The position numbers and the translations under genes are program-made. This document shows, one piece after another, positions 11,815 through 45,489 of a DNA stretch of 64,000 nucleotides (its first letter is position 1; every line of letters starts with the position of its first letter). The notes under the pieces were generated by a model that was not told the DNA's origin, ran no database searches, and was given only the letters and a program-made list of their open reading frames with translations. Origin of the DNA: Escherichia phage FL18; the sequence record PP400780; one strand, given 5' to 3'.

Positions 11815-12399
11815 ATGACTCGTCCAGCGAGACAGATTTTTAACCAAACAAATATAACAAACTTTGTTGTGGATATCCCGGATAGTACACGAACTTCAGG
11901 TTTTGTGCTCAATGCCCAAACGGCACCGTTGCCAGGTGTGAGAATTCCTGTTGTTGAAACTGTGACAGGCACAATGGGGTTAGGACGTGCAATGCGTGCA
12001 GGCACCACATTTGAATATGACCCTTTTGTTGTACGATTTATAGTTGATGAAGACATGACGTCCTGGATGAACATGTATAAATGGATGCTCAGCACTAATA
12101 ACTATATAACCGGACATAATACGGCCCACTCCGATGGTCCTGAGTTTGTTACTTTGCACATTTTAAACAACAATAAGACTGAAGTAGTTTTGACGGCAAA
12201 TTTCTATAAACCATGGATTTCTGATTTGAGTGAAATTGAATTTAGTTACACTGAAGACTCTGACCCTGCCGTTACGTGCGTAGCAACTATTCACTACGCG
12301 TATATGACGATAGAAAAGGATGGCGAAGTCATTGTGTCTCAACAACCACGTCAAGCAGTCGAATCTAAATCCATTTCTAGACACCCTTCCTTGCGTTAA
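11815..12399 (+). CDS. 3: tail completion/sheath stabilizer gp3
   Basis: ATG 11815 after GAGG; ORF track start 11809 is GTG; synteny between 2 and 1. Confidence 0.5.
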   Translation: MTRPARQIFNQTNITNFVVDIPDSTRTSGFVLNAQTAPLPGVRIPVVETVTGTMGLGRAMRAGTTFEYDPFVVRFIVDEDMTSWMNMYKWMLSTNNYITGHNTAHSDGPEFVTLHILNNNKTEVVLTANFYKPWISDLSEIEFSYTEDSDPAVTCVATIHYAYMTIEKDGEVIVSQQPRQAVESKSISRHPSLR

Positions 12400-12452
12400 T
12401 CGCTTCTAGCTCCGTATGTTATAATCACTCATAAATTATATGAGGAAAACCT

Positions 12453-13187
12453 ATGGAGCTAATCTTTTTAAGTGGCATCAAACGTAGTGGTAAAGACACT
12501 ACTGCTGATTACATCAATTCAAACTTTAAATCCGTAAAATACCAATTGGCATATCCGATTAAAGACGCTCTAGCAATAGCCTGGGGACGTAAACATGCTG
12601 AAGATCCTGATGTATTCACAGAGTTGAAATACGAATACTTTGAAGGCATTGGATATGACCGTGAAACACCATTAAATCTCAATAAGTTGGATGTTATTGA
12701 ATTATTGGAAGAAGCGCTAATTTATTTACAAAGTCAATATTTACCAATTAATAATGTTAAAGTATTATCATCATTAGAAGGTGGGTATTCATATCTAGAT
12801 ATTAAACCATATGAAGCCCTGCGTGAAGCTATAAATAATATCAACGACACATGGTCAATCCGCCGTCTTATGCAAGCCCTCGGTACGGATGTTGTCGTTA
12901 ATTTATTTGACCGTATGTATTGGGTTAAACTTTTTGCATTAAACTATATGGATTATATTGGAAGTGATTTCGATTACTATGTTGTAACCGATACACGCCA
13001 AGTCCATGAAATGGAAACCGCTAGAGCGATGGGTGCTACAGTTATTCATGTGGTTCGCTCTGGTACGGAATCCACTGATAAACATATTACAGAAGCTGGG
13101 TTGCCTATTGAAGAAGGCGATTTAGTTATTACAAACGACGGCTCTTTAGAAGAGCTTTATTCTAAAATTGAAACAATCTTAAGGTAA
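12453..13187 (+). CDS. 1: deoxynucleoside monophosphate kinase gp1
   Basis: 244 aa; N-terminal P-loop-like LSGIKRSGKDT; synteny. Confidence 0.75.
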   Translation: MELIFLSGIKRSGKDTTADYINSNFKSVKYQLAYPIKDALAIAWGRKHAEDPDVFTELKYEYFEGIGYDRETPLNLNKLDVIELLEEALIYLQSQYLPINNVKVLSSLEGGYSYLDIKPYEALREAINNINDTWSIRRLMQALGTDVVVNLFDRMYWVKLFALNYMDYIGSDFDYYVVTDTRQVHEMETARAMGATVIHVVRSGTESTDKHITEAGLPIEEGDLVITNDGSLEELYSKIETILR

Positions 13188-16084: not shown

Positions 16085-16114
16085 TAGCCCCTTCCGAAAG
16101 GTTGGGGCTTTTTT
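16085..16114 (+). terminator. intrinsic terminator (agcccc..ggggct + T7), cassette copy 1
   Basis: hairpin with GAAA loop followed by T-run. Confidence 0.6.
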
Positions 16115-16115
16115 T

Positions 16116-16123
16116 GTATAAAT
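16116..16123 (+). promoter_or_regulatory. late promoter TATAAATA immediately after terminator
   Basis: exact TATAAATA. Confidence 0.45.
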
Positions 16124-16159
16124 ATAGTAAACAATAAACCTACTTTCTAAGGACCATCA

Positions 16160-16786
16160 ATGTATACTTTTAATGAATTTTTAGCCGAAACGGAAGTAAT
16201 CACCGAAGCCGGTGTACGTATGACAAAAGAGAAATGGCAAGCTGCTTACGATGCTATTTCTGGTACAAAAACTAGTACAGAGTTTTTCAAAAACGTTCAA
16301 GCCATGTACGGTATCGACACTTCCAGCCAAAAAGAATATTACAGAGCTTCTAAAGCATTCAAAGATATTGTTAGTGGTGGCGTTTCTGCTAAATCGGGTT
16401 CGCCTAAAGTAAAACCTGCTCCTACCATTTCTAAACCTGCGACCCCTAAAGCAATAGCAAAACCTGAGCCTAAGCCGGAAGTAAAAGCAACTCCTAAAGC
16501 TCCTGCTCTTAAGTTTGATACTTCTAGCCTGGAAAAAAAATATAAACAACTATCTTCGCTTGTTCGTGATATTGAATCCGATACATCTTCACTCGTTCGT
16601 GAATTCAATAGTCTTCGTAATGGCCAACATATCAACAACCTTGATACCCCAGACCTTTATCGTCTTTATTTGACTATCGAAGGTTTGAAGTACACTCAAC
16701 CACTTCACGATGAGATTAAAGAAAAACTTCGTCAGGCAGGTCGTTTGGCTGCTGACGCTGCTCAGTATGCAAAAACTCGTAAGTAA
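16160..16786 (+). CDS. internal-protein-like with CTS-like N-terminus and Pro/Lys-rich repeat region
   Basis: N-terminus MYTFNEFLAE; repeats PKVKPAPTISKPATPKAIAKPEPKPEVKATPKAP; 208 aa. Confidence 0.55.
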   Translation: MYTFNEFLAETEVITEAGVRMTKEKWQAAYDAISGTKTSTEFFKNVQAMYGIDTSSQKEYYRASKAFKDIVSGGVSAKSGSPKVKPAPTISKPATPKAIAKPEPKPEVKATPKAPALKFDTSSLEKKYKQLSSLVRDIESDTSSLVREFNSLRNGQHINNLDTPDLYRLYLTIEGLKYTQPLHDEIKEKLRQAGRLAADAAQYAKTRK

Positions 16787-16791
16787 AGAAT

Positions 16792-16807
16792 GGGGACTTC
16801 GGTCCCC
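16792..16807 (+). terminator. UUCG-tetraloop hairpin after ORF
   Basis: ggggac-ttcg-gtcccc, no T-run. Confidence 0.35.
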
Positions 16808-16838
16808 ATTAGGGGGTCTATAACTTTCTGAAAAAGTT

Positions 16839-18422: not shown

Positions 18423-19025
18423 ATGCGAAACCAAAATAATGATATTGACTCAATGTTCGAAGAGTTCCGAGATAAGGTAAATCCACCTACGTCTTTAGTT
18501 GATTCATTACGATATGTTGCAACTGGACGTAAATGGTACTGGTCGTCTTCTTATGAGACCACCGAGAAAACGGCTAGCCATAGCAGAAAATCTTTATTAG
18601 CCCCAGGTATTATGATTCATGATATCGGAGCTATTGCTAAACTAGTTGCAGACCATGATATTAGATTCACTGATTTCGTTGCTACTACATGGTCTGTTTG
18701 TTGTTTAAACACCGAATTGGAATATATCAGTGAACGTTCAGATGATTACATAGGCTTTAGAGACAAGCTTTTAAGGTCTAACATGTTTTATATTGATACA
18801 GAAGTTCTAGTCAATAATAAAAAATACTACTTCACTTTAATCGTCGATTCTGAAACTATGTATGAAGGCAAGCCTTTGCTTAAGAGAGTTGATGCTTTAA
18901 GTGCTATTGATGCGCTTTATGAAACTATGGTTGTTAGTCCTAATTTCACTAACAATTTAATCCTTGAGCAATTTATTATGGAATGTAGAGAATATGTCAA
19001 AGCCAACCCTGTACATGCCAATTAA
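18423..19025 (+). CDS. hypothetical protein (C-terminus contains FIMECR)
   Basis: 200 aa from ATG 18423 after AAAGGAG. Confidence 0.5.
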   Translation: MRNQNNDIDSMFEEFRDKVNPPTSLVDSLRYVATGRKWYWSSSYETTEKTASHSRKSLLAPGIMIHDIGAIAKLVADHDIRFTDFVATTWSVCCLNTELEYISERSDDYIGFRDKLLRSNMFYIDTEVLVNNKKYYFTLIVDSETMYEGKPLLKRVDALSAIDALYETMVVSPNFTNNLILEQFIMECREYVKANPVHAN

Positions 19026-19389
19026 GCCCTGGGCATACGAATACAAACGTAAATTAATCCCAAATGAAGTACTATTTGGCCCTATTTTAGCTTTAGCATT
19101 TTTAATCTTTATGATTATAGGAGCCGTTTTAGATTCTAGTGAAGTTATATCTTCTGATGCGGTGTTTTTACTTATTATACCTGGGTCGTTTATTGTGCCA
19201 TTTTTATTAATGCCTATTAACTGGGTGGGATATTGGTATCAAGGCCGTCATCACAGAGCTCGAGTTCGTGAGTGGAAAGTTCAGTGCGCAAAAGCCCAAG
19301 CTCAGTATGATGAAGCTGTTAAAAAGTATGAATATGAAGAAGCTATGGAATTCGTTAAGGAAATAAGATGCAAAAGCCTCAACTCTTAA
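19015..19389 (+). CDS. membrane protein
   Basis: hydrophobic segments; start uncertain (18994 or 19015). Confidence 0.4.
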   Translation: MPIKPWAYEYKRKLIPNEVLFGPILALAFLIFMIIGAVLDSSEVISSDAVFLLIIPGSFIVPFLLMPINWVGYWYQGRHHRARVREWKVQCAKAQAQYDEAVKKYEYEEAMEFVKEIRCKSLNS

Positions 19390-19727
19390 CCATATGGCCT
19401 TCTCTTGGTGAGAACATTCTAATTTTTATTATGAGTATTGGCATGGGATTTGCCTTTGGATTAGTTGGATTTCTTATTGACGGCGTTGTGTTAGGATTTA
19501 TAGGGAACACTGGTGGATTCACAGACCAATGGCAGGACTTACGGTATACCAAAGCCTTTGCATCCATCGCATCATTTTGTACTGTAGTCTATTTTTACTA
19601 CGATTTTATAAACCATAACAAGAAAAATAAAAAGGTTTACGCTTCTCAAATGATTAGTTATAATGAACTCCTAGCTAGACGTGAAAATGAAACAATCGAA
19701 AACTTTATTAAGGAATGTAGAAAATGA
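19368..19727 (+). CDS. membrane protein ending NFIKECRK
   Basis: 119 aa; SD AAGGA 7 nt upstream. Confidence 0.5.
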   Translation: MQKPQLLTIWPSLGENILIFIMSIGMGFAFGLVGFLIDGVVLGFIGNTGGFTDQWQDLRYTKAFASIASFCTVVYFYYDFINHNKKNKKVYASQMISYNELLARRENETIENFIKECRK

Positions 19728-23348: not shown

Positions 23349-23581
23349 GTATAGCAATTTACATTAAATCAGAATCATGTGATAGTTATCTGTACACATA
23401 CGATAAAGATGTGTCAGAAGAAAAAATCAAAGACGATCTTAATATGGACCTTGATATGTTCTGTCCTATTGCAGATTACAAACTTGCGGTCTCTAATAGT
23501 GAAAGTCCATCTAAAGAAACGCGCATTGAAGAATTTATATCTGAACTAATGGCCAAATCATGGGACCGAGATGATGAGTAA
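23345..23581 (+). CDS. hypothetical protein
   Basis: 78 aa from ATG 23345. Confidence 0.4.
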   Translation: MSIAIYIKSESCDSYLYTYDKDVSEEKIKDDLNMDLDMFCPIADYKLAVSNSESPSKETRIEEFISELMAKSWDRDDE

Positions 23582-24029
23582 GAAAAATAAAGTGAAAGAA
23601 CTATCAGCCGGTATTATTTTCCTTACCGAAGATAAAGAATTATTCATGGGGCGTGTAACTGGTTCTCGTCATAAAGGTGCATTAGCTCATCGGTGGGATA
23701 TTCCTAAAGGCCGTGTCGAACCTGGCGAATCTCCTATTGAAGCCGCTATTCGTGAATGCGAAGAAGAAACTGGGTTTACACAATATGACCCTGCCTTCCT
23801 GAAAGACCTAGGTGAACATCATTACTCAGACAATAAGAATATTCATCTGTTCCTATATACCATCCCTGTAGAGCACGAGCAATTCAGAAACAGTGTTTGT
23901 AATTCATATCATACATTCCCAGACGGACGACAGATTCCTGAATTTGATGCATTCGCTTTAATTAAACCTTCTCAATGGGAATATGTAATGGGCAAATCAT
24001 TATATAAGGTGCTCACTACACTCCTATAA
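23571..24029 (+). CDS. nudE: Nudix hydrolase
   Basis: Nudix box GRVEPGESPIEAAIRECEEETGF; 152 aa; adjacent to lysozyme gene as in T4. Confidence 0.75.
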   Translation: MMSKKNKVKELSAGIIFLTEDKELFMGRVTGSRHKGALAHRWDIPKGRVEPGESPIEAAIRECEEETGFTQYDPAFLKDLGEHHYSDNKNIHLFLYTIPVEHEQFRNSVCNSYHTFPDGRQIPEFDAFALIKPSQWEYVMGKSLYKVLTTLL

Positions 24030-24063
24030 GTAATAAATACCTCCTATAAACGTGGGAGGTATT

Positions 24064-24552
24064 ATGAATATATTTGAAATGCTTCGTAATGACGAAGGTC
24101 TTAGACTGACTTTATACAAAGACACTGAAGGCTTTTGGACGATTGGCATAGGCCATTTGGTAACAAAGAACCCGTCTTTAGCCATAGCTAAAGCTGAACT
24201 TGACAGAATTATCGGACGTAAATGCAACGGTACAATTACCCTTGATGAGGCTGAAAAGCTATTTAATGAAGACGTTGATAAAGCCGTTCGCGGAATCTTG
24301 GGTAATGCTAAACTTAAACCGGTATATGATTCTTTAGATGCGGTTCGTCGATGTGCATTGGTCAATATGGTCTTCCAAATGGGTGTAGCAGGCGTCGCCG
24401 GTTTTACTAATTCTCTTCGTATGCTTCAACAGAAACGTTGGGACGAAGCGGCAGTAAATCTAGCCCAATCTAAATGGTATCGTCAGACACCTAATCGCGC
24501 GAAACGCGTAATCTCAACATTTAAAACAGGAACTTGGAAAGCGTATATATGA
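24064..24552 (+). CDS. e: endolysin (T4 lysozyme family)
   Basis: [15 protein letters not shown]...TIGIGHL...; length about 162 aa. Confidence 0.9.
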
Positions 24553-24830
24553 AAACATACAATGAATTTTTATCAGAATCTATTCTTAACGAAGCTACTG
24601 ACACATTTGCAACTAAGCTAGGTGCAGCTTTGGTTGAAGCCGAAAGTCTATTAGCACGTATTTCTGAACTTGCTAGTAAGATAGATACTCGCAAATTTGA
24701 ACGTACCAGCGATATCGCTAAGCTTGAAGCCTTGTTACGTATGTGCGATAAACCGGAAGAAATCGCTAAGAACGGCTCGCTGATGAAACAACGTCTTGAA
24801 AAATATATTTCAGGCGCTTCAGAAAAATAG
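24549..24830 (+). CDS. internal-protein-like, [13 protein letters not shown]
   Basis: ATGA overlap with e; 93 aa. Confidence 0.6.
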
Positions 24831-24832
24831 TT

Positions 24833-24884
24833 GTTTACTTCCTCCAAGGGTTTTGATACTATACATTCATCAACTACTTGGAGG
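24833..24884 (+). promoter_or_regulatory. PeSL (inverted repeat cctccaag/cttggagg around GATACTATA)
   Basis: seen in sequence. Confidence 0.5.
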
Positions 24885-24889
24885 AAATT

Positions 24890-24993
24890 ATGACCCGTCC
24901 GAAGCGTCCATTGCGATAAATCAAGCACGCTTAGATGAAAAAATTGCTCAACGTCCGACTTGGTACAAATACTTTGGTAAATCAATTTACTAA
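24890..24993 (+). pseudogene. denV: denV (endonuclease V) remnant: start codon plus frameshifted C-terminal about 31 codons
   Basis: ATG ACC CGT (MTR) then out-of-frame ...[30 protein letters not shown], matching recalled T4 EndoV C-terminus; about 100 internal codons absent. Confidence 0.6.
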
Positions 24994-24999
24994 GGAAAA

Positions 25000-25260
25000 A
25001 TGAAAATGTATCAAGAATTTATCGTTGAAGCAGATGCCAAAGGTCCTAAATTTAAAGTTAAAGCTTTCATTGGTGATGCGGAAGACTTTGGCTCATTAAA
25101 ACGTAATGGGTATTCTTTCTTAGGTGGCAATGGTAAAGAAATCAACACCTATGCAAAACGTAGTGAAATTGCTTATGTTGTAGCAAGTCCTAAAGTAGAT
25201 GTTGACGATATTGGATACGATTTTAACAACTTCGGAATTATTTCTGGCGGTAAAGCTTAA
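25000..25260 (+). CDS. internal-protein-like, CTS MKMYQEFIVE
   Basis: 86 aa. Confidence 0.55.
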   Translation: MKMYQEFIVEADAKGPKFKVKAFIGDAEDFGSLKRNGYSFLGGNGKEINTYAKRSEIAYVVASPKVDVDDIGYDFNNFGIISGGKA

Positions 25261-25263
25261 ATT

Positions 25264-25295
25264 GTTTACGCTTAAGTATTAATATGGTATATAAT
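25264..25295 (+). promoter_or_regulatory. early-type promoter (GTTTAC ... TATAAT)
   Basis: spacing about 20 nt, weaker match. Confidence 0.3.
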
Positions 25296-25325
25296 TACTC
25301 TATCAAAACAAACAAGGAAACAAAA

Positions 25326-25628
25326 ATGAAAACATATCAAGAATTTATTACTGAAGCGCGAGTGAGTGCAGGTAAATTAGAAGCCGCTATAAATAAAAAG
25401 GCCCATTCATTTCATGATTTGTCCGATAAAGACCGTAAGAAACTTGTAAGCCTTTATATTGACAAAGAGCGTATTCTCGCTCTTCCTGGCGCTAATGAAG
25501 GTAAACAGGCCAAGCCTTTGAATGCTGTCGAAAAGAAAATTGATAACTTTGCTTCTAAATTCGGTATGTCTATGGATGACCTTCAGCAAGCGGCTATCGA
25601 AGCAGCTAAAGTAATTAAAGGTAAATAA
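25326..25628 (+). CDS. internal-protein-like, CTS MKTYQEFITE
   Basis: 100 aa; SD AAGGA. Confidence 0.6.
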   Translation: MKTYQEFITEARVSAGKLEAAINKKAHSFHDLSDKDRKKLVSLYIDKERILALPGANEGKQAKPLNAVEKKIDNFASKFGMSMDDLQQAAIEAAKVIKGK

Positions 25629-25630
25629 CA

Positions 25631-25676
25631 GTTTACTTCTCCTAGAATTGTGATAGTATATTCATAATTCTAGGAG
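25631..25676 (+). promoter_or_regulatory. PeSL (11-bp inverted repeat ctcctagaatt/aattctaggag)
   Basis: GTTTAC then stem-loop containing GATAGTATA. Confidence 0.55.
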
Positions 25677-25739
25677 GGGTAAATACAGAAATGGACAATT
25701 CATGTGCCACGGAATGGCCCAACATAAAAGAGAAACTAA

Positions 25740-26279
25740 ATGAGAACATTTTTAACTGGACCTTATCTATCCCTGATGAATGCTTTTACACACCATTCTG
25801 ATGCTAGAGTAGAAGAAATTTGTAAGAACGGTTACGTCCCACCATTTGAAGACGTACTCAAGCAGTACTGTACACTTCGTTTAGACGGCGGCAGACAATC
25901 AGGTAAATCGACCGCAGTAACTAATTTTGCTGTTAATTGGCTGTATGATGGTGGAACAGTTATTGTTCTTTCTAATACTTCAGCTTATGCTAAAATTTCT
26001 GCTGGCAACATTAAAAAAGAATTTTCTCGTTATTCTAGCGATGATATTCGATTCCGTTTATTTACTGATTCTGTTCGTAGTTTTATTGGCAATGAAGGTT
26101 CTAAATTCCGTGGATTAACGCTTTCTCGTATTCTGTACATAATTGACGAGCCTATTAAAGCTCCTGATATGGATAAGATTTACAATGTCCATATTAAAAC
26201 AGCCCAACACTGTTGCAAAAGCAAATATTGCATCGGCGGTATTGCTCGTCCTCAATTTTTTGTGATTGGAATGCAATGA
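25740..26279 (+). CDS. small P-loop NTPase-like protein
   Basis: Walker A-like GGRQSGKST, Walker B-like ILYIIDEP; 179 aa. Confidence 0.45.
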   Translation: MRTFLTGPYLSLMNAFTHHSDARVEEICKNGYVPPFEDVLKQYCTLRLDGGRQSGKSTAVTNFAVNWLYDGGTVIVLSNTSAYAKISAGNIKKEFSRYSSDDIRFRLFTDSVRSFIGNEGSKFRGLTLSRILYIIDEPIKAPDMDKIYNVHIKTAQHCCKSKYCIGGIARPQFFVIGMQ

Positions 26280-26584
26280 TGACCACTATTGAAGTTTTTG
26301 AGTATTGTTATAACAGCCCAGTATGCAATAAAAGGGCTCTTGTAGAAAATTATGAGATTTACCATTTTAAACCTAAACGATATCGTTTGACTAAAGGACC
26401 GTTCGCAGGGCAGCAGGTTCTTTGTACTGCTCCTAATGCACGGTTGATGACTAGTATTCCGCATTTCAAAATGGAATTTATTGATGGGCCATTTAAGGGA
26501 TTAATCACTCAAAGTTTAATGGCGTTTAATTCCGACCCATTTTTGATTAAAGAAAAAACTTGGATAAATTTATTTTCTAATTGA
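26276..26584 (+). CDS. hypothetical protein
   Basis: ATGA overlap; about 102 aa. Confidence 0.4.
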   Translation: MMTTIEVFEYCYNSPVCNKRALVENYEIYHFKPKRYRLTKGPFAGQQVLCTAPNARLMTSIPHFKMEFIDGPFKGLITQSLMAFNSDPFLIKEKTWINLFSN

Positions 26585-29520: not shown

Positions 29521-29699
29521 AATTAACTAAAGAAGAGAAAGCTAAACTGTTCGAACTTATCCATGACCTATTGGATGAACAAGCAGCCACCAATGCGTAC
29601 GATGAATATGCTCCTTTAACAGATGAAGAATATCACGCATTGATGGAATCATTTGACAGGAAAGAACAAGAACTCATTGACTACGTGAATTCACTATAA
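29517..29699 (+). CDS. hypothetical protein
   Basis: 60 aa. Confidence 0.4.
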   Translation: MKLTKEEKAKLFELIHDLLDEQAATNAYDEYAPLTDEEYHALMESFDRKEQELIDYVNSL

Positions 29700-29708
29700 G
29701 GGACTCTT

Positions 29709-30290
29709 ATGGCTAGTTTAATTTTTACATATGCCGCTATGAACGCTGGTAAGTCTGCTTCATTACTTACTGCCGCACATAACTATAAAGAACGTGGCAT
29801 GGGTGTATTAGTTCTTAAACCGGCTATTGATACTCGTGATTCAAAAGGTGAAATAGTCTCTCGTATTGGTATTCGTCAGGACGCCAATATAATTACAAAA
29901 GACATGGATATCTTTGAATTCTATAAATGGGCTGCAGCACAAAAGGATATTCACTGCGTATTTGTTGACGAAGCTCAGTTCTTAACTACTGAAAAGGTGT
30001 ATCAACTTAGTCGTATTGTTGACGTATACAATGTGCCGGTAATGGCATATGGACTACGAACAGATTTTAAAGGTAATCTATTTGAAGGTTCTCAAGCATT
30101 AATGGCTATTGCCGATAAGCTTGTTGAACTTAAAGGTGTCTGTCATTGCGGTAAAAAGGCCACAATGGTAGCTAGAGTCACGGAAGACGGACTTCCAATT
30201 ACAGATGGCAGTCAAATTGAAATTGGTGATACCGATAGATATGTGTCATTATGCCGGAAGCATTGGAACGATTTGACAGGGTTGTTATAA
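29709..30290 (+). CDS. tk: thymidine kinase
   Basis: P-loop AMNAGKSASL, zinc ribbon CHCGKKA...C; 193 aa. Confidence 0.85.
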   Translation: MASLIFTYAAMNAGKSASLLTAAHNYKERGMGVLVLKPAIDTRDSKGEIVSRIGIRQDANIITKDMDIFEFYKWAAAQKDIHCVFVDEAQFLTTEKVYQLSRIVDVYNVPVMAYGLRTDFKGNLFEGSQALMAIADKLVELKGVCHCGKKATMVARVTEDGLPITDGSQIEIGDTDRYVSLCRKHWNDLTGLL

Positions 30291-30851: not shown

Positions 30852-30880
30852 AGCCCCTTCCGAAAGGTTGGGGCTTTTTT
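30852..30880 (+). terminator. intrinsic terminator, cassette copy 2
   Basis: agccccttccgaaaggttggggct + T-run. Confidence 0.6.
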
Positions 30881-30881
30881 G

Positions 30882-30889
30882 TATAAATA
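30882..30889 (+). promoter_or_regulatory. late promoter TATAAATA after terminator
   Basis: exact match. Confidence 0.45.
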
Positions 30890-30913
30890 TCCTTGTAAAC
30901 TAAGAGAGGATAT

Positions 30914-31471
30914 ATGAAATTTTTAAAATATGTAAGTTGGGTTGTTCTTGTTCCTATAGATTGGATCGCAGCGATTTTAGCAATTATTCTAGCACCATTT
31001 GTAGTTCCATTCCATAGTGAAAAAACCGGTAAACTACCTTATGGCTTTGACTGGATGATGACTTACGATAATCCTATCGATGGTGACCGCGGCCATGTTG
31101 AACGTTGGTCTAAAATACGTAAAATTCCTGTTATAGGTAAATATGCTCAACGCGTAGCTTGGCTATGGCGCAACAAAGCATATAATTTTTCTTATCATGT
31201 TTTAGGTCGCGAAGCTTCATCAGAATGGCACTATAAAGGCAACGCCGAAACTAAATCTGGATCTCCTGATCCGGCACATCATGGATATCTTTTAGTTTGG
31301 AACGAGTCTGCATGGGGATTATTCGCTGCTATACCTTATCTTAAGGTTGGTGGTATTACATTTTATCTGCGTGTTTACTGTGGTTGGAAACTTAAGAGTC
31401 TTTTGAGTCGTCCTATTCCACGCGCAATGCTTTCATTCCATATCAACCCTTTACGATATTACAAAAACTAA
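30914..31471 (+). CDS. membrane protein
   Basis: 185 aa, N-terminal TM helix. Confidence 0.5.
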   Translation: MKFLKYVSWVVLVPIDWIAAILAIILAPFVVPFHSEKTGKLPYGFDWMMTYDNPIDGDRGHVERWSKIRKIPVIGKYAQRVAWLWRNKAYNFSYHVLGREASSEWHYKGNAETKSGSPDPAHHGYLLVWNESAWGLFAAIPYLKVGGITFYLRVYCGWKLKSLLSRPIPRAMLSFHINPLRYYKN

Positions 31472-31475
31472 TCAA

Positions 31476-31504
31476 AGCCCCTTCCGAAAGGTTGGGGCTT
31501 TTTT
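31476..31504 (+). terminator. intrinsic terminator, cassette copy 3
   Basis: same hairpin sequence + T-run. Confidence 0.6.
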
Positions 31505-31514
31505 GCATTTAGCA

Positions 31515-31565
31515 GTTTACTTCTCCTCAGGTTGTGTTATAGTAGACCTTACTTACTAGAGGAGA
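31515..31565 (+). promoter_or_regulatory. PeSL
   Basis: GTTTAC + tctcctc ... gaggaga inverted repeat. Confidence 0.5.
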
Positions 31566-31570
31566 ACGTT

Positions 31571-31750
31571 ATGTCACGTAAAGAAAAAATTTCTAAGTTA
31601 ATGTTTTTTATTGAAGAGTACGCTAACGCTGTATCCGATTGGGAAAATGCCCACGGGTGTGAAGACGGTGATATCGATATCAATAAGGCAATGAAAAAGA
31701 TGGCTGATACGCACACTGAATTGCAAATGTATGTTAACGAGATTATGTGA
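31571..31750 (+). CDS. hypothetical protein
   Basis: 59 aa. Confidence 0.4.
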   Translation: MSRKEKISKLMFFIEEYANAVSDWENAHGCEDGDIDINKAMKKMADTHTELQMYVNEIM

Positions 31751-31757
31751 GGATATT

Positions 31758-31964
31758 ATGCTTTACGATTATACTGGAAAATCTGAAGACGGTGTACTTG
31801 AACTTTTACCTGAAAGCGCTGAAGATGATGATATAGTGGTGATGTTTTGTAAAAATGGTCCTGGGGATAAGGGATGGATTTATCTTCGCCAAGAAAATGA
31901 CTTAATTGTTTTGGACCCTAAACAAGTTGAAGAACTTTATCAACATTTAAAATACAATCGGTAG
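31758..31964 (+). CDS. hypothetical protein
   Basis: 68 aa, SD GAGGA. Confidence 0.4.
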   Translation: MLYDYTGKSEDGVLELLPESAEDDDIVVMFCKNGPGDKGWIYLRQENDLIVLDPKQVEELYQHLKYNR

Positions 31965-32003
31965 TTTACATCTTGGTAGGACTACTATAACATAGTCCTA
32001 CCA
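31964..32003 (+). promoter_or_regulatory. PeSL with inverted core (ggtaggactactataacatagtcctacc)
   Basis: same stem as other copies but loop sequence is the reverse complement. Confidence 0.45.
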
Positions 32004-32021
32004 AAACAAATGGAGAACAAA

Positions 32022-32132
32022 ATGAAACTTTTGCTTATTGCTTATGTTATAGTACAATACAATTATCCAATGTTTACGTATAACATGGTAAATGGTGTAA
32101 TGAATCTTATTGAAGCGAGTATGGTAAAATGA
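32022..32132 (+). CDS. very small hydrophobic ORF (36 aa)
   Basis: SD TGGAG; low confidence. Confidence 0.25.
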   Translation: MKLLLIAYVIVQYNYPMFTYNMVNGVMNLIEASMVK

Positions 32133-32308
32133 CACGTGAACAAGCTAATAAATTGATGGACCTTATCCGTGACTTACGTGAAGCCGATTCAGATTTGAAT
32201 GATGTAGCTTATCATGCGGTAAATGATAACGGAGACTTTTATGAAAATCAGGTTGATGCTTGTCAGAATGATTTGGTGAATTTTGTTGAAACTTTAATTG
32301 GTGAATAA
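32129..32308 (+). CDS. small acidic protein (59 aa)
   Basis: ATGA overlap. Confidence 0.35.
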   Translation: MTREQANKLMDLIRDLREADSDLNDVAYHAVNDNGDFYENQVDACQNDLVNFVETLIGE

Positions 32309-32309
32309 T

Positions 32310-32840
32310 ATGAAAACTGTAATTGAAACGACTGAGTTGTTTGGTGATTTATGTATCGAAAAACGTGGTTATGCTTACGTTCTGACACAAGAAGATGATG
32401 CGGTTACTATTCTTCCTATGGAACTGGACAAGATTTTGAAACTCAATCCATCAGGCCATGCATCTGTAATTAACATTGGTGAAGACCTTCAAGTTCGTTT
32501 TTATCACGGACTTTATAGTGGGGTTAATATCGAAACCGAAGATGAATGTTTTTCTATTAATAATTGGAAAACATTTGTCACTAAGGTGAAAGAATTCATG
32601 GAATCTGAAACAGCCAAAAAGGCCAAACTTCAATGGGCTAAATGCCGTAATGCTTTTATTACAAATCAGGACCGCCCTGACTATACAACAGTCCTAGGCG
32701 TTAATCCTTCTTATGAAGATGGTGATGTCATAGTTATTCGCCAAATTGATGACCTTCGTCAACATATCATTACATTAGACAAAGATGAGGCAGTTGCTCT
32801 TAAAGCTTATCTCGATTCTATTATCCCGACTTTGAAATAA
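32310..32840 (+). CDS. hypothetical protein
   Basis: 176 aa. Confidence 0.5.
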   Translation: MKTVIETTELFGDLCIEKRGYAYVLTQEDDAVTILPMELDKILKLNPSGHASVINIGEDLQVRFYHGLYSGVNIETEDECFSINNWKTFVTKVKEFMESETAKKAKLQWAKCRNAFITNQDRPDYTTVLGVNPSYEDGDVIVIRQIDDLRQHIITLDKDEAVALKAYLDSIIPTLK

Positions 32841-32849
32841 GGAATTATT

Positions 32850-33323
32850 ATGATTATCAATGAAAACTCTTGGCACTTTAAAATTTATACCGCGTTTAAT
32901 AGTACATGGAATCGTCCGAAAACGTTGTGTGCTTATTTTTGGAAAACGTTAATCCCAGTATTGGCTGCTTCAATTATTGGATTTGCGATTTTAGCAGCAG
33001 TCACAATCATTGGCCAGGAAATTTTAACTAAATTCTTTGTTTTTAGCAGTCTATGGACATTAGTTCCGGCTTCAATTGGTGTAGGCATTTTAATGGTAGC
33101 AGTCATGGCTTTTATTGCTACCGGGTTGGTAATTGGTCCGTCTTGGTTGTTAGACAAATATAACGACAGAAAATATTATAAAGAAATTGAGCTCATTGCG
33201 CAAAACCAAGAACGAATTAAAAATGGACTTGAGCCTATTGAACGTAAGAAATCATTAATAGGTGAATACCTTAAAGCTCGTAAAGAAAAAGTCTGTCCTA
33301 CTCTTGAATATAAGGCTAAATGA
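32850..33323 (+). CDS. membrane protein
   Basis: 157 aa, two TM segments. Confidence 0.5.
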   Translation: MIINENSWHFKIYTAFNSTWNRPKTLCAYFWKTLIPVLAASIIGFAILAAVTIIGQEILTKFFVFSSLWTLVPASIGVGILMVAVMAFIATGLVIGPSWLLDKYNDRKYYKEIELIAQNQERIKNGLEPIERKKSLIGEYLKARKEKVCPTLEYKAK

Positions 33324-34309
33324 TGAAAACGATTGTTAAGTCTTACTTTGGTAGCCACCTTTATGGAACGTCTACTCCTGAATCTGACGTCGATTTTAAA
33401 GAAATTTATGTCCCTCATGCTCGTGATATCTTGACCGGTAACGTTAAAGAACATATGAGCAAGAACACGAATAACACATCTTCTAAGAACACAAAAGACG
33501 ATGTGGATCATGAGTTGTATAGTCTCAAATATTTCTTTAAACTAGCTGCGGATGGTGAAACCGTCGCATTAGATATGCTTCACACTCCACCAAGTCTAGT
33601 AGTTAAATCTGATTTGCCTGATGTATGGAAGTATATTCAAGATAACAGGTCTCGTTTCTATACTACTAACATGAAATCTTATTTAGGGTATGTCCGTAAG
33701 CAAGCTTCTAAATACGGTGTCAAGGGTTCTCGACTGGCTGTTCTTCGTCAAGCCCTTAAACGTTCTAATGAATGGGGACAATACTTTGATAATGGTGCAG
33801 TAATTCGTTTATCACATATGAAGAATGTTCTGCCTGTAGGTGAATTTGCTTCGTGGGTTGAAACCGAAAACGAGAAAACAGGTAAGCAAACATTCTATAA
33901 TCTGTTAGACCGTAAATTCCAAGATACGTTAACCAATAAAGAGTTCAATGCCATCCTGGTTAAACTGGAAGAGAACTATGGCGAACGTGCTCGTAAGGCA
34001 GAAGCCAACGAAGGTATTGACTGGAAAGCATTGAGTCATGCATGTCGTGGTGGACTTCAATTATTGGAAATTTACAAAACCGGCGACCTGGTTTACCCAC
34101 TTCAGGATGCTCCATTTATTCTCGATGTTAAGCTTGGTAAACATACGTTTAAAACTGTACAAGAATTCCTAGAAGATATCGTTGACCAAGTTGAACATGC
34201 GTCAGAACAAGCCGCTAAGAACGGTATGCAACAAAAAGTAGATATGAGTTTCTGGGATGACTTCCTTGAACAAGTCTACTTAGAAAACCACAATTCGTAC
34301 TATAAATGA
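33320..34309 (+). CDS. nucleotidyltransferase-fold protein (Pol-beta superfamily)
   Basis: motif GSHLYGTSTPESDVDF (GS-x10-DxD) and downstream acidic DHE; 329 aa. Confidence 0.5.
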   Translation: MMKTIVKSYFGSHLYGTSTPESDVDFKEIYVPHARDILTGNVKEHMSKNTNNTSSKNTKDDVDHELYSLKYFFKLAADGETVALDMLHTPPSLVVKSDLPDVWKYIQDNRSRFYTTNMKSYLGYVRKQASKYGVKGSRLAVLRQALKRSNEWGQYFDNGAVIRLSHMKNVLPVGEFASWVETENEKTGKQTFYNLLDRKFQDTLTNKEFNAILVKLEENYGERARKAEANEGIDWKALSHACRGGLQLLEIYKTGDLVYPLQDAPFILDVKLGKHTFKTVQEFLEDIVDQVEHASEQAAKNGMQQKVDMSFWDDFLEQVYLENHNSYYK

Positions 34310-40715: not shown

Positions 40716-41380
40716 ATGTAGTATATAAACTATCATTTATTAGTAGAATTAATGCTAAAACCCCGCCATATTATTATATTGGAAGTAAAACCAATTGCAC
40801 TTTTGACGGAACGAATATTATTGATAAAAATGGTAAATTTTATTATTCGTCTTCGTCATCTTCCGAATTTCAAAAAGCTTTGTTGAAAGAAACACCGAAA
40901 GTTGAAATATTATATTTTCAATTAGTCGGAGATGAACAAATAACTAGCATTGAAGCTGAATTTCAAAAGAATATAGAAAAAGATATATGGAATAAAGAGT
41001 ATTTTAATTTAGCATATGCTAATGGTCAATTTACAACGTACGGTGTTTCTCCTTCTAAAGAAACTAGAGAAAAGCAATCAATAACCATGATTAAAAGAAA
41101 TCGTAATAAAGGTAAAAATCATGGATTTTATGGAAAGCATCATACTAATTTAGCCAGAAAGAAAATATCAGAAGCTTCTAAAAAATACTGGAAAGAAAAT
41201 CCACATCATGGATTTTCGCACACAAAGGAAGCTAAAATTAAAATTGGAATTTCATCTTCTATCAGGCATAAAGGAAGTGGAAATCCGATGTACGGCGTAA
41301 AACCTTGGAAAACTCCTAGCGTTGTTCCATGGAATTTAGGTAAAATGAAAGAAATGGTAAAACGAGTAAAACATGCATAG
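40712..41380 (+). CDS. GIY-YIG family endonuclease (short form)
   Basis: VYKL...YYYIGSK plus NUMOD3-like GKNHGFYGKHHT motifs; 222 aa. Confidence 0.55.
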   Translation: MNVVYKLSFISRINAKTPPYYYIGSKTNCTFDGTNIIDKNGKFYYSSSSSSEFQKALLKETPKVEILYFQLVGDEQITSIEAEFQKNIEKDIWNKEYFNLAYANGQFTTYGVSPSKETREKQSITMIKRNRNKGKNHGFYGKHHTNLARKKISEASKKYWKENPHHGFSHTKEAKIKIGISSSIRHKGSGNPMYGVKPWKTPSVVPWNLGKMKEMVKRVKHA

Positions 41381-42203
41381 GTATTATATAATTTATAAAA
41401 TAACAAATATAATTAATTCAAAGGAATATATCGGTGCGCATAGCACCGATAACATAAATGATGGTTATATGGGATCAGGAACATTGATTCGTGCCGCTTT
41501 ATTAAAATATGGTAGAAAAAATTTTAATAAAGAAATTTTACATGTTTTTGATAATGAAAAACAAATGTATGATAAAGAAGCTGAACTCGTAACCGAAGAG
41601 TATTGTCTAAAAGAAAATACATATAATATTAAACCTGGTGGAAAAGGTGGAACTGCCTATGAACAGACACTTGAACATCGCCGCAAAAATAGTTTAGCAA
41701 ATAAAGGTAAAAAGAGAACAGAAGAAACTAAAATAGCTATTTCACGTGCTTTAAAGAAATATAAACGTACGCCAGAGCATCAAGCAAATTTAAATAAAGC
41801 CGTAAGCATAGCTATGAAGCGAAAAGATGTTAGAAGTAAATTAGCTGGAGAGCGGTCTGAGAAAGATAAATTACCTATATCAAACGGTGTTAAAAAATAT
41901 TACAATTCTTTGAGTGAAGAAGAACGCGAACTTCATCGCAAGCGAATTATTGAAGGTAAAAAGAATTCTCCCATGTCATTGGAATCTAGACAAAAGCTTT
42001 CAAAAGCTTTAAAAGGACTTCAAGTTGGTTCAAAAAATCCAATGTATGGAAAAATTTCTCCAACTAGCAAAACCGTTTCAGTTGACGGTATTAAATATGA
42101 TTCAATTAAAAAGTGCTCAAATGCCATAAAAGTTTCTAGACATCTTATACTAAAACGCTGTAATTCTACTGATGAAGCTTGGAAAAATTGGATATTATTA
42201 TGA
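41373..42203 (+). CDS. GIY-YIG homing endonuclease
   Basis: YIIYKITN...EYIGAH...GSG, three NUMOD3-like repeats, C-terminal HTH; 276 aa. Confidence 0.65.
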   Translation: MHRYYIIYKITNIINSKEYIGAHSTDNINDGYMGSGTLIRAALLKYGRKNFNKEILHVFDNEKQMYDKEAELVTEEYCLKENTYNIKPGGKGGTAYEQTLEHRRKNSLANKGKKRTEETKIAISRALKKYKRTPEHQANLNKAVSIAMKRKDVRSKLAGERSEKDKLPISNGVKKYYNSLSEEERELHRKRIIEGKKNSPMSLESRQKLSKALKGLQVGSKNPMYGKISPTSKTVSVDGIKYDSIKKCSNAIKVSRHLILKRCNSTDEAWKNWILL

Positions 42204-42670
42204 ATTATGACAGAATATACCCGTGTTGCTTTGTGAATGGCCCTGGATGCAGGGTCGTTCTTTTCGTTACAGGTTGTTTGCATAAATGCGAAGGGTGTTA
42301 TAATAAATCAACATGGAATGCTAGAAATGGTGTTCCATTCACTGGTGAAACACTAGAACAATTAATTGAATGTTTGAATAATGATTATATAGAAGGATTG
42401 ACTATAACCGGAGGTGACCCTCTTTATCCTGATAACAGAGACGTGATTCACTCTGTGGTTCAAACTATTAAAAATCTTTATCCCAATAAAAGCATTTGGT
42501 TGTGGACAGGATATAAGTTTGAAGATATTAAACAACTAGAAATGCTTAAATATGTTGATGTTATTATTGATGGGAAGTATGAGAAAAATCTTCCGACTAA
42601 AAAGCTGTGGCGAGGATCAGATAATCAGCGACTTTGGTCAAATACCGATGTGGTGTGGAAACATGATTAA
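42203..42670 (+). CDS. nrdG: anaerobic ribonucleotide reductase activating protein (radical SAM)
   Basis: CLHKCEGCYN cluster; 155 aa. Confidence 0.75.
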   Translation, partial: NYDRIYPCCFVNGPGCRVVLFVTGCLHKCEGCYNKSTWNARNGVPFTGETLEQLIECLNNDYIEGLTITGGDPLYPDNRDVIHSVVQTIKNLYPNKSIWLWTGYKFEDIKQLEMLKYVDVIIDGKYEKNLPTKKLWRGSDNQRLWSNTDVVWKHD

Positions 42671-42785
42671 ATTGAATTATATTATGGATACTATAAATGA
42701 TATGATTTTTCATTTTGGTCCAGAATTTTATTCGCAGTATAGTTTAGTGCTTATCAATGCTTGGTTAATCAATTAAGGGTAAAAT

Positions 42786-43001
42786 ATGTATAAATTTCGT
42801 AAAGGTTTAGCTGATTTTCTTACAACTGTAACATTCTTTCTGTTTATGGCAGTTGGAGCTATTTTCCTTATTCCTTTTATTGCTATATTTTTCGTGATTA
42901 GTTTGATTTCTCCAGAAAAAGGACTATCTTCTAGTGAGTTCAATGAGCGTCTGGATAAAATTACTAACAAGCTGAATGCGGTTCTTGATAAAAAGGATTA
43001 A
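42786..43001 (+). CDS. small membrane protein
   Basis: 71 aa, TM helix. Confidence 0.45.
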   Translation: MYKFRKGLADFLTTVTFFLFMAVGAIFLIPFIAIFFVISLISPEKGLSSSEFNERLDKITNKLNAVLDKKD

Positions 43002-43003
43002 TT

Positions 43004-43315
43004 ATGATTAGTTTTGAGCGGTATGTAGTAGAGAGTTGGAATGGTTTTGATATGTTCGGTAATGACTATTATTTCTATGAATGTAGTCTGAACCCAAGCT
43101 TCTGGGCTGGACGTGAACAAGACCTCGAAGAAATCAACGCTCGTGCCGATTTGTTAGGTGAACTGCCTACGGTTTATTTTACCTTTGATGAATCCGGCTT
43201 CGTTATCCAGGTTTATTTTCCTGAAGAAAACTCTGGTGAGGATTCTGTTAATCCTCCTTATTGGGCTTACCAAGGAATTATTTCTCGTGGAACAAAACTC
43301 GAACTTAAAGAATAA
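43004..43315 (+). CDS. hypothetical protein
   Basis: 103 aa. Confidence 0.45.
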   Translation: MISFERYVVESWNGFDMFGNDYYFYECSLNPSFWAGREQDLEEINARADLLGELPTVYFTFDESGFVIQVYFPEENSGEDSVNPPYWAYQGIISRGTKLELKE

Positions 43316-43610
43316 GATTGAAGTCTATGGAATTCCAGATGAAGTAGGTCGTTGTCCTGGATGTCAATCAGTTACAAAACTTCTAAAGGAGCTCAATGCT
43401 CCTTTTACTTTCTATAAAGTTCTTACAAATAATGGTAAGATTGAGTATGATCGTCCACTGATTGTATCTCTTGCTAAACGCGCTGGATTCACATCTCTTA
43501 ACATTCGTTATCCAGTCATTTTCATTAATGATTCTAGACAAAAGAATATTAAACACTTCAAAGAAACTCTCATTTCACTTGGATATGATAGAGATATCAT
43601 AGAAGATTAA
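43277..43610 (+). CDS. glutaredoxin-like protein (CPGC), start codon uncertain
   Basis: KIEVYGIPDEVGRCPGCQ resembles NrdC fold; no in-frame ATG near the domain start. Confidence 0.4.
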
Positions 43611-43614
43611 GACG

Positions 43615-43634
43615 GGCCCTCTGGGCCTTTCTTT
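43615..43634 (+). terminator. hairpin ggccc-tct-gggcc + T-rich
   Basis: seen in sequence. Confidence 0.4.
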
Positions 43635-43708
43635 CTCACATTCTGTATATTACCATTCTAAGCTATCGTTCCTTTCTTATCATTCCCTAAAATATTTTTC
43701 ACAAAGTT

Positions 43709-43738
43709 GTTTACAACGAGCTCAAACCGTGGTATTAT
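43709..43738 (+). promoter_or_regulatory. early promoter (GTTTACA 17 nt TATTAT)
   Basis: seen in sequence. Confidence 0.45.
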
Positions 43739-43768
43739 TAACATATGAATTGCCTTTGAGGATTTGAT

Positions 43769-43951
43769 ATGGTTGTGGTTGATAAAGAAATTAAAAAGGG
43801 ACAGTATTATCTTATTAATGGTAATGCTGTTCGCGTTACCTACGTAAATGGTTATGATGTTTATTATCTTATACTTAAGTTACATAAACACATGATTTGT
43901 GACCGTGCTGTATTTAGTTCAGTTGCTAAGGAAATTAAACTCCATGGGTAA
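43769..43951 (+). CDS. hypothetical protein
   Basis: 60 aa. Confidence 0.4.
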   Translation: MVVVDKEIKKGQYYLINGNAVRVTYVNGYDVYYLILKLHKHMICDRAVFSSVAKEIKLHG

Positions 43952-44237
43952 AACGTATCGTCGTAAAGACTTAAAAGTGCGTGATTATGACTATTTCGGA
44001 AAGCGTAAAGCTCCTGACGGTGTAAGTCATAAAGATATGGTTGAAAACATTTTTCGCTCAGATAAATGGCGTAGAATGAAAGGTATTGATTCAGAAGTTA
44101 AAGATGAGTTAAATCGTCAATTACGCGGTGAAGTAAGAAAGTTGAAAAAATCAGTTTACATTGACGATGATTTTGATTATAATACTTCTCAACGAGTTGC
44201 TAAACGTAAATCAAACGAGTGTTATCGTTACAGCTGA
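43944..44237 (+). CDS. basic hypothetical protein
   Basis: 97 aa from ATG 43944. Confidence 0.4.
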   Translation: MGKTYRRKDLKVRDYDYFGKRKAPDGVSHKDMVENIFRSDKWRRMKGIDSEVKDELNRQLRGEVRKLKKSVYIDDDFDYNTSQRVAKRKSNECYRYS

Positions 44238-44244
44238 GGAAAAT

Positions 44245-44376
44245 ATGAATATCAAACGCATGCTTTTTAAGCAAGGGCTATATACTTTAAATGTTACTCC
44301 AAAAGGCGATACAACTAAGTGGTCAGTAAATGACTGGATTAAATTTATTGATGAAAACGGTAATTGGGAAATTTAA
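44245..44376 (+). CDS. small hypothetical protein (43 aa)
   Basis: SD GAGGA. Confidence 0.3.
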   Translation: MNIKRMLFKQGLYTLNVTPKGDTTKWSVNDWIKFIDENGNWEI

Positions 44377-44577
44377 ATGAATCCTGAATCTAAATTATCG
44401 CAGCGAATTGCTGAAGAACGCGCCAAATTTTTCCAGAACATGAAACACAATGGTATTGAGGATGAAGTTTTTCTAAATTGGTTCTGGAATAATAAGTATG
44501 CAGCATGTGAAGGAGCTTTGTCATTGTCAGTCGCAATGATGTACGAAGGCTGGAAGGGTGCCAAAAAGTTTAGCTAA
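44377..44577 (+). CDS. hypothetical protein
   Basis: 66 aa. Confidence 0.4.
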   Translation: MNPESKLSQRIAEERAKFFQNMKHNGIEDEVFLNWFWNNKYAACEGALSLSVAMMYEGWKGAKKFS

Positions 44578-44595
44578 GGGCTTCGGCCCTTTTTG
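44578..44595 (+). terminator. intrinsic terminator (gggc-ttcg-gccc + TTTTT)
   Basis: seen in sequence. Confidence 0.55.
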
Positions 44596-44630
44596 GATAA
44601 TAAAATTTTTAACGTAATTGAGGATAATGT

Positions 44631-44957
44631 ATGACTATTCAAATTAAAAACGCCATCAATTCTTACGCATATGATAAAGTAGTTTCTTTGCTAGAAAAAG
44701 GCGATATTGTAACTCCTCAAATTTTGGATAAATGGGAAAAAGAGCTTCATCAAATGATGAAACAGAATGATCAGAAGATTGGACGCAACACTGTACGTGA
44801 ATTGTTGGTTCAATATATCTTGTCAGAATTTGATGTTAAAGCTTTTGGTGTAGAATCTAAAGCTTATCAAAAGCATGAAATTTCCGATAAAACTATTCGT
44901 CGCATGAAAAATCAACGCAAGAAAAAAATTGCAGACCTGAAAATTACTAAGGTATAA
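44631..44957 (+). CDS. hypothetical protein
   Basis: 108 aa. Confidence 0.5.
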   Translation: MTIQIKNAINSYAYDKVVSLLEKGDIVTPQILDKWEKELHQMMKQNDQKIGRNTVRELLVQYILSEFDVKAFGVESKAYQKHEISDKTIRRMKNQRKKKIADLKITKV

Positions 44958-44959
44958 TT

Positions 44960-45175
44960 ATGAACGAAGCTCTTATTAACGATTTGCGTCTTGCTGGATA
45001 TGAAGTAAATACAAATGGCATTGGTTTAACTCAAATTGAAGGAAACGGATTCATCCTTGAGTATGAATTTAGCCAATGGTGGTTATATGCCAATTACGGC
45101 GAATTGATTGAATATGTTGACCAATTTGATTCACTAGATGCAGCTCTTGAAGCGGCTAAGTTGATGAATGTATGA
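44960..45175 (+). CDS. hypothetical protein
   Basis: 71 aa. Confidence 0.45.
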   Translation: MNEALINDLRLAGYEVNTNGIGLTQIEGNGFILEYEFSQWWLYANYGELIEYVDQFDSLDAALEAAKLMNV

Positions 45176-45441
45176 AATTTATTAATATTTCTATTACTAT
45201 TGAAAATTATGGCATTTTCTATGTTGACCAATACATGAAAATTTCATTTTTCCCAAATAAGACTGGTGTTGGATATTGGGAAAGTCATGTTTCTGAATTA
45301 AATGAAAGTGAATATGTTAGCACACATGAAAAGTTTTTAGACTTTTTATATCATGCAGATTTAACTAGTCATTATATAGATATTCATGAATTTAAAAAGA
45401 TGATGGAGAAAGTGTTCCAAGCATACTGTTTACTTAGATAA
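45172..45441 (+). CDS. hypothetical protein
   Basis: 89 aa. Confidence 0.45.
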   Translation: MKFINISITIENYGIFYVDQYMKISFFPNKTGVGYWESHVSELNESEYVSTHEKFLDFLYHADLTSHYIDIHEFKKMMEKVFQAYCLLR

Positions 45442-45453
45442 CTGATATCCTCT

Positions 45454-45489
45454 ATGCTTTAAGATAGATCTTCAAATATTATGATATAA
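45454..45489 (+). promoter_or_regulatory. possible middle promoter (TGCTTTA, TATTAT/TATAAT) upstream of gene 55
   Basis: spacing non-ideal. Confidence 0.25.

Follow-up and report, generated by a model that had tools for sequence, protein, structure and literature searches.

A denV remnant in a Mosigvirus genome, very probably a pseudogene formed by deletion between short direct repeats

Gene content of the locus

The window analysed here, that is, the whole stretch of 64,000 nucleotides from Escherichia phage FL18 (PP400780), comes from a phage of T-even type in Mosigvirus, the RB69-like genus, and over the interval 24000-26300 it shares 99.9% identity with Escherichia phage JM17 (PP400779.1), a close relative whose genome is distinct. 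According to the list of open reading frames and to the annotation of relatives, this part of the window carries, all on the + strand, nudE (23571-24029), the lysozyme gene e (24064-24552), a first small gene homologous to RB69 ORF127c (24549..24830), a promoter and stem-loop element (24833..24889), a remnant of denV (24890-24993), a second small gene homologous to RB69 ORF125c (25000..25260), a homologue of ipII (25326-25628), and vs.8 (25740-26279). Several other stretches of the window (16113-16833, 18993-19704, 30879-31476, 41319-42200 and 43608-45455) have either no megablast match longer than 300 bp in JM17 or one of only 92-95% identity, and the same applies to 31476-34307 and 42200-43608, the rest being about 99% identical; these divergent stretches are likely to be cassette replacements, or differences in the presence or absence of homing endonucleases.

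Both small genes resemble genes for internal head proteins, the name used in RefSeq for the ORF127c-type gene in Shf125875 and Lutter and for the orthologue of the ORF125c-type gene. The ORF127c-type product starts with a ten-residue sequence resembling the capsid-targeting motif of T4 internal proteins, and neither type of gene has a match in Pfam. The ORF125c-type gene, whose product starts with MKMYQEFIVE, begins 6 nt past the denV stop codon, and is thus presumably still transcribed from the promoter retained in front of the remnant. It is intact in the window (86 aa), and in JM10, G2133 and Lutter its reading frame is shifted or divided by the insertion of 2 nt or the loss of 1 nt around the position corresponding to 25143-25155; the small genes of this cassette are repeatedly broken. 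Farther downstream, the region of the ipII-type gene (25314-25660) is 93.7% identical to T4 ipII while its neighbours reach only 72-82%, and looks like a second small cassette that different genera have in common.

The element in front of denV is of the PeSL type, combining an early promoter with a stem-loop, and was delimited by its fit to a published consensus, by RNA folding, and by the record of Lutter in RefSeq, where the corresponding element is annotated as 'promoter'. It is composed of a -35 box TTTACT (24834-24839), a 17-nt spacer and a -10 box TACTAT (24857-24862), with a TG at 24854-55, and conforms to the consensus TTTACW-N17-TAYWAT of T4/PST-type PeSL promoters (Comeau et al. 2014, PMC4122927). 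The promoter is enclosed by the arms of a perfect 10-bp inverted repeat (TTCCTCCAAG at 24839-24848 and CTTGGAGGAA at 24877-24886), the 3' arm of which includes the Shine-Dalgarno sequence GGAGG (24880-24884). The stable stem-loop associated with such promoters is present as well: the predicted RNA fold has an energy of -20.7 kcal/mol (z = -3.9), and none of 200 shuffled sequences folded as well. A generic sigma-70 scan did not flag this promoter, which matches only 8 of the 12 consensus positions. The placement of an ATG directly 3' of a PeSL, proposed in a preliminary description of this DNA that was made from the sequence alone, is thus borne out. In T4, a comparable element in the region of 65355-65420 precedes denV, GTTTAC...TGATACTAT, with CTCCTGTAG/CTACAGGAG as its inverted repeat; denV and its promoter/stem-loop travel together, although the position of the gene in the cassette array is different in T4.

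Reading frames of the remnant

The start of denV is retained as ATG ACC CGT (M-T-R), at the head of a frameshifted mini-ORF (24890..24919, + strand) that translates to MTRPKRPLR*, nine codons followed by a stop. One frame over, 24895..24993 (+ strand) contains 32 denV codons, corresponding to DenV residues 106-137, followed by the original denV stop. Aligned with residues 106-137 of T4 EndoV (sequence taken from the T4 genome, NC_000866), 28 of these 32 residues are identical (E 3e-20), and when T4 EndoV was searched by tblastn against the whole 64-kb window, the remnant was found with an E value of 6e-17, the second-best match having an E value of 0.001. The C-terminal match is therefore far above chance, and the possibility that it might be spurious, named in the preliminary description, can be set aside. 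The same description had correctly read an M-T-R start with a stop seven codons later (the stop is the seventh codon after M-T-R) and a C-terminus related to T4 EndoV, and had counted 31 codons in the latter where translation gives 32. Both this homology and a genomic position equivalent to that of the gene in relatives place the remnant, by descent, in the denV/EndoV family.

A 310-bp deletion between two 13-bp repeats

Intact denV genes of 137 aa are found at the syntenic place, between the same two small internal-protein genes, in Shf125875 (Mosigvirus) and in G2133 and Lutter (both Tequatrovirus). A blastn alignment of the window with the intact allele of Shf125875 yields two colinear blocks of about 97% identity, separated by a gap of 310 bp in the subject and overlapping by 13 bases in the window (24886-24898). 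The missing part amounts to exactly 310 bp, or 103 1/3 codons, in agreement with the roughly 100 absent codons reported initially. As 310 equals 3 x 103 + 1, the deletion itself produces the frameshift: the term 'frameshifted remnant' used in the preliminary description holds insofar as the C-terminal codons are out of frame, but the frameshift is no separate lesion, a single 310-bp deletion accounting for both.

The endpoints of the deletion coincide with a pair of direct repeats, and the repeats and their 310-bp spacing were compared in G2133, Lutter and Shf125875. In G2133, the left copy (AATTATGACCCGT) spans the spacer of the ribosome site, the ATG and codons 2-3, and the right copy (AATTATGTCCCGT), located exactly 310 bp downstream, spans codons 103-107 (N103-Y-V-P-S107); the two copies are identical at 12 of 13 positions, with an exact stretch of 7 bases. 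The window has a single hybrid copy, AATTATGACCCGT (24886..24898, + strand), the junction being defined by the overlap of the blastn blocks and by the repeats of the intact alleles, and this copy is directly followed by the sequence found to the right of the second copy. The crossover can be placed after 24893, where the window has the A that marks the left copy, and before 24899, where bases peculiar to the right flank begin. This arrangement, with two copies in the parental allele and one in the product, is the textbook mark of a deletion between short direct repeats; all 13 phages that carry the junction have one copy left. In T4 denV there is no repeat of at least 7 nt between the start region and the rest of the gene, and the hazard of such a deletion is therefore specific to the RB69/G2133-type allele.

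It is thus very likely that 24890-24993 is a dead pseudogene of denV, the gene of T4-type endonuclease V, generated by a repeat-mediated deletion. The ancestor would have been an RB69/G2133-type allele with two near-identical 13-bp repeats 310 bp apart. Replication slippage or illegitimate recombination between these repeats, a mechanism suggested by the repeat architecture alone, would then have eliminated one repeat copy and everything in between, removing codons 4-105 and shifting the frame. Two other ways of reading the locus were rejected: a programmed frameshift or translational bypass, since the 102 missing codons, which include the catalytic domain, are not in the DNA at all, and an ancestral short form from which intact denV arose by insertion, as the remnant is an out-of-frame piece of a well-folded enzyme.

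Distribution of the allele and exchange between genera

A search with a junction-specific 66-mer retrieved exactly 15 records, corresponding to 13 phages: JM17, JM10, F27, G4498, G8, BF15, 235Ecol030PP, B1.1, Shinka, Phaginator, FL12, FL23 and FL44. Their countries of origin are Germany, Poland, Denmark and the USA, and the source, where one is recorded, is manure, pig faeces, a pig farm, sewage or wastewater (none is given for F27, Shinka and 235Ecol030PP, and FL23 and FL44 were left out of this compilation). In the records examined, again leaving out FL23 and FL44, three carriers belong to Mosigvirus and seven to Tequatrovirus. The PeSL/denV type of locus is found in 235 records in all, 15 of which have the deleted allele. 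Searches with a junction 30-mer gave one match in IMG/VR, which is probably the same genome as G8, and none in the metagenome contigs of JGI, neither of which provides a useful frequency.

How did the same remnant come to reside in two genera? A sliding identity profile against the Tequatrovirus carriers delimits a cassette of high identity of about 0.9 kb (24431..25330, + strand), which comprises the 3' end of e, ORF127c, the PeSL, the denV remnant and ORF125c, up to the next early promoter. Its left boundary lies inside e, and its right boundary is located at that promoter, at about 25280-25330. Within it, most 50-bp windows are 96-100% identical between the two sides and a few are 90-92% identical, and the interval 24549-25260 as a whole reaches 97.6-98.2%, whereas in nudE and the 5' part of e the window is only 69-73% identical to the Tequatrovirus carriers. 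In the latter phages, nudE and the 5' part of e are 94-95% identical to T4, and in G4498, G8 and Shinka the flanks share 94-97% identity with T4; G8 and Shinka are devoid of T4's own ipII-denV block, and G4498 is devoid of T4's denV. A cassette of about 98% identity inside flanks of about 70% identity is direct evidence of a recent exchange of small cassettes between genera: the stump-carrying cassette of about 0.9 kb moved by recombination between Mosigvirus and Tequatrovirus. As a neutral and easily recognised scar, the remnant can serve as a tracer of such recombination.

Whether the allele originated once is a different matter. At the diagnostic position of the repeat, the base is the A of the left copy in 12 of the 13 carriers and the T of the right copy in Shinka; a single origin is therefore not established. 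The T-type junction of Shinka could stem from an independent deletion with a different crossover, or from conversion by an intact allele. In the haplotype table there are at least four haplotypes of the remnant, including one with secondary decay, and the flanking haplotypes are mosaic.

As for the persistence of the allele, all carriers with a recorded source are from dark habitats, where denV would presumably be near neutral. Two further possibilities, which we regard as unlikely when taken together, are that the deleted allele is favoured by selection, or that the repeat pair is a recurrent deletion hotspot. In the first case, the loss of DenV might avoid the triggering of a host defence or the cost of nicking phage DNA, or the deletion might raise the expression of ORF125c, by bringing the strong PeSL promoter and the ribosome site to 80 nt upstream of this gene and so boosting an injected anti-defence protein; a favoured deletion would account for the occurrence of the stump cassette in two genera and in four or more countries. 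In the second case, the junctions of A-type and T-type would have arisen separately.

Loss of the catalytic domain and decay of the remnant

EndoV is a DNA glycosylase/AP lyase acting on pyrimidine dimers, and its catalysis involves the N-terminal amino group of Thr2 and Glu23, together with Arg residues within the first 30 positions. The Glu23 region lies inside the deleted 310 bp, and only M-T-R is left of the EndoV N-terminus. The intact DenV of Shf125875 matches the Pfam family Pyr_excise (PF03013) over aa 1-87 (E 3.5e-14), and the solved structures of EndoV, 2END and 1VAS, align with intact DenV over its full length. The 65-aa ORF that covers the remnant has no match in Pfam, and tblastn finds nothing in the window for EndoV aa 1-95; the remnant thus has neither the catalytic domain of PF03013 nor an uninterrupted ORF of about 137-138 aa. 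With the loss of the whole catalytic domain, the phage would be unable to make EndoV. The promoter, the Shine-Dalgarno sequence and the ATG are all retained; translation starting there can yield only MTRPKRPLR, a peptide of 9 residues, and the 32 C-terminal codons are out of frame and devoid of a start codon or ribosome site of their own.

The remnant is decaying further. JM10 and FL12 have an additional 1-bp deletion in its A-run, which breaks the remnant frame as well. Amino-acid-changing substitutions are found at positions that are invariant in the four intact alleles considered (T4, Shf125875, G2133 and Lutter): AGT>AAT (of the Ser-to-Asn type) at 24920 in the window, and GCT>GAT in other haplotypes.

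Could the remnant nevertheless have kept, or acquired, a function, either as a 9-codon uORF or leader for the downstream internal-protein gene, or as a short peptide with a new role, and so owe its maintenance to selection and not to drift? The identity of the promoter, Shine-Dalgarno sequence, ATG and mini-ORF in 12 of the 13 carriers, the occurrence of the allele in two genera and four countries, and the fact that the deletion retains a promoter that also serves ORF125c could be taken in this sense. However, the conservation of about 100 bp among sequences that are about 98% identical carries almost no information, Shinka alters codon 2 of the mini-ORF, the C-terminal frame, which lacks any means of being initiated, is frameshifted in JM10 and FL12, and the substitutions of the other haplotypes change amino acids. 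Moreover, an allele restricted to 15 of the 235 records of this locus type gives no sign of a sweep. We therefore hold a functional remnant to be very unlikely, and a dead pseudogene remains the preferred reading.

In the GenBank records of JM17 (12334-12474) and B1.1, a 46-aa 'endonuclease' CDS has been annotated over the remnant, with a TTG start inside the promoter. This CDS is an annotation artefact of homology-based naming, and should be corrected in both records.

Search for a second copy and predicted consequences for repair

The consequences of this loss would be different if a functional denV, or an unrelated gene for dimer repair, were located elsewhere in the genome and repair had been kept. 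The window represents 64 kb out of some 168 kb of genome, and T4 itself has denV at another position, after ipII, so that such a copy is conceivable; we nevertheless judge it highly improbable. The position of denV in T4 corresponds here to the interval between the end of the ipII homologue (25628) and the start of vs.8 (25740), which is only 111 nt long. Tblastn detects no second EndoV-like sequence within the 64-kb window, and in the complete genome of JM17 (168,588 bp) it matches only EndoV residues 102-137, at the remnant itself (E 4e-17), with nothing else significant. JM17, the nearest relative, is used here as a proxy for the genome beyond the window; it is about 99% identical to the window over 59 kb, apart from several divergent blocks. 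Record counts point in the same direction: full-length DenV retrieves 1119 records by tblastn (478 from Escherichia and 65 from Shigella) and its N-terminal 103 aa retrieve 1102 (464 and 64, respectively), and the N-terminal shortfall of 14 Escherichia records and one Shigella record is precisely the composition of the 15 records bearing the junction. This indicates, by arithmetic on record counts and not by a check of each genome, that none of these 15 records has the catalytic domain anywhere. An intact denV elsewhere, the finding that the preliminary description had named as contrary to its reading, was thus encountered neither in the 64-kb window nor in the complete JM17 genome.

Two records outside this set have partial matches to DenV, and may represent further, independently damaged denV alleles: OL964735.1 (labelled 'T4', 62524-62898) matches only over aa 13-137, and OM386662.1 (ESCO47, 29628-29732) only over aa 1-35.

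That the 310-bp gap could be an artefact of assembly or sequencing, such as a collapse between repeats, has a negligible probability, for although short direct repeats can in principle cause mis-assembly, a 13-bp repeat is far below the length of a sequencing read, and exactly this junction is shared by 13 phages that were isolated independently and come from several submissions, with at least four haplotypes of the remnant, one of them secondarily decayed.

The excision repair of the host is not known to act on T-even DNA, and UV sensitivity is higher in T2 and T6 than in T4, through the absence of the v (denV) function; this classical difference in UV sensitivity, ascribed to the u or v gene, reportedly goes back to the work of Streisinger in 1956 and of Harm in 1963. 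From its sequence, the phage studied here is predicted to be devoid of phage-encoded excision repair of UV pyrimidine dimers. By the same token, the 13 carriers, several of which are candidates for therapy or biocontrol, are predicted to be about as UV-sensitive as T2, and not as resistant as T4, a prediction that bears on UV-based handling and on environmental persistence.

Comparison with known systems

Taken together, the denV stump is a real and fairly ordinary natural gene loss. It traces a natural EndoV-null state among RB69-like and T4-like coliphages to an exactly defined molecular lesion, leaves the understanding of EndoV and of T-even genome evolution unchanged, and will be no surprise to specialists. 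No description of the allele was found in the literature searched, where the term denV collides with the abbreviation for dengue virus; absence there is no proof that no such description exists.

Compared with denV of T4 (NP_049733; structures 2END and 1VAS; PF03013), the stump shares M-T-R and codons 106-137, and has the same kind of early promoter and stem-loop in front, but it has lost codons 4-105, and with them the whole Pyr_excise domain, and what is left downstream is out of frame. Its position is also different, between two small internal-protein genes directly after e, whereas denV follows ipII in T4.

A state with a similar predicted outcome is that of T2, likewise a wild T-even phage without EndoV: in its genome (AP018813, 60000-68000), no EndoV-like sequence is found in the interval between e and regB, in line with the earlier remark that some T-even phages naturally lack the enzyme. 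In T2, however, the ipIII-ipII-denV block has been replaced by a single internal-protein gene of 474 nt and no stump is left, whereas here an internal deletion of 310 bp has kept the promoter, the start codon and the 3' end as a datable scar. It can be added that vs.8 is not annotated as a full ORF in T2, and that the ORF following ipIII in G4498 is also 474 nt long, the length of the T2 replacement gene.

Spontaneous deletions between short direct repeats are known in T4, from the literature on rII deletions, and the present case follows the same rule, with two short repeats in the parent and one copy in the product. Unlike the rII deletions, which are laboratory mutants, the denV stump is an allele of natural phages, among which it has persisted and spread.

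The last comparison concerns the modular shuffling mediated by PeSLs in the hyperplastic regions of T4-type phages (Arbiol et al. 2010, PMC2839356; Comeau et al. 2014, PMC4122927). The locus shares with it the setting, a hyperplastic internal-protein region made of small cassettes with PeSL promoters, and the occurrence of one cassette in different genera. In contrast, the 310-bp deletion did not run from PeSL to PeSL: it begins at the start codon, immediately past the stem-loop, and ends at a 13-bp repeat that lies within the coding sequence and has no relation to the PeSL.
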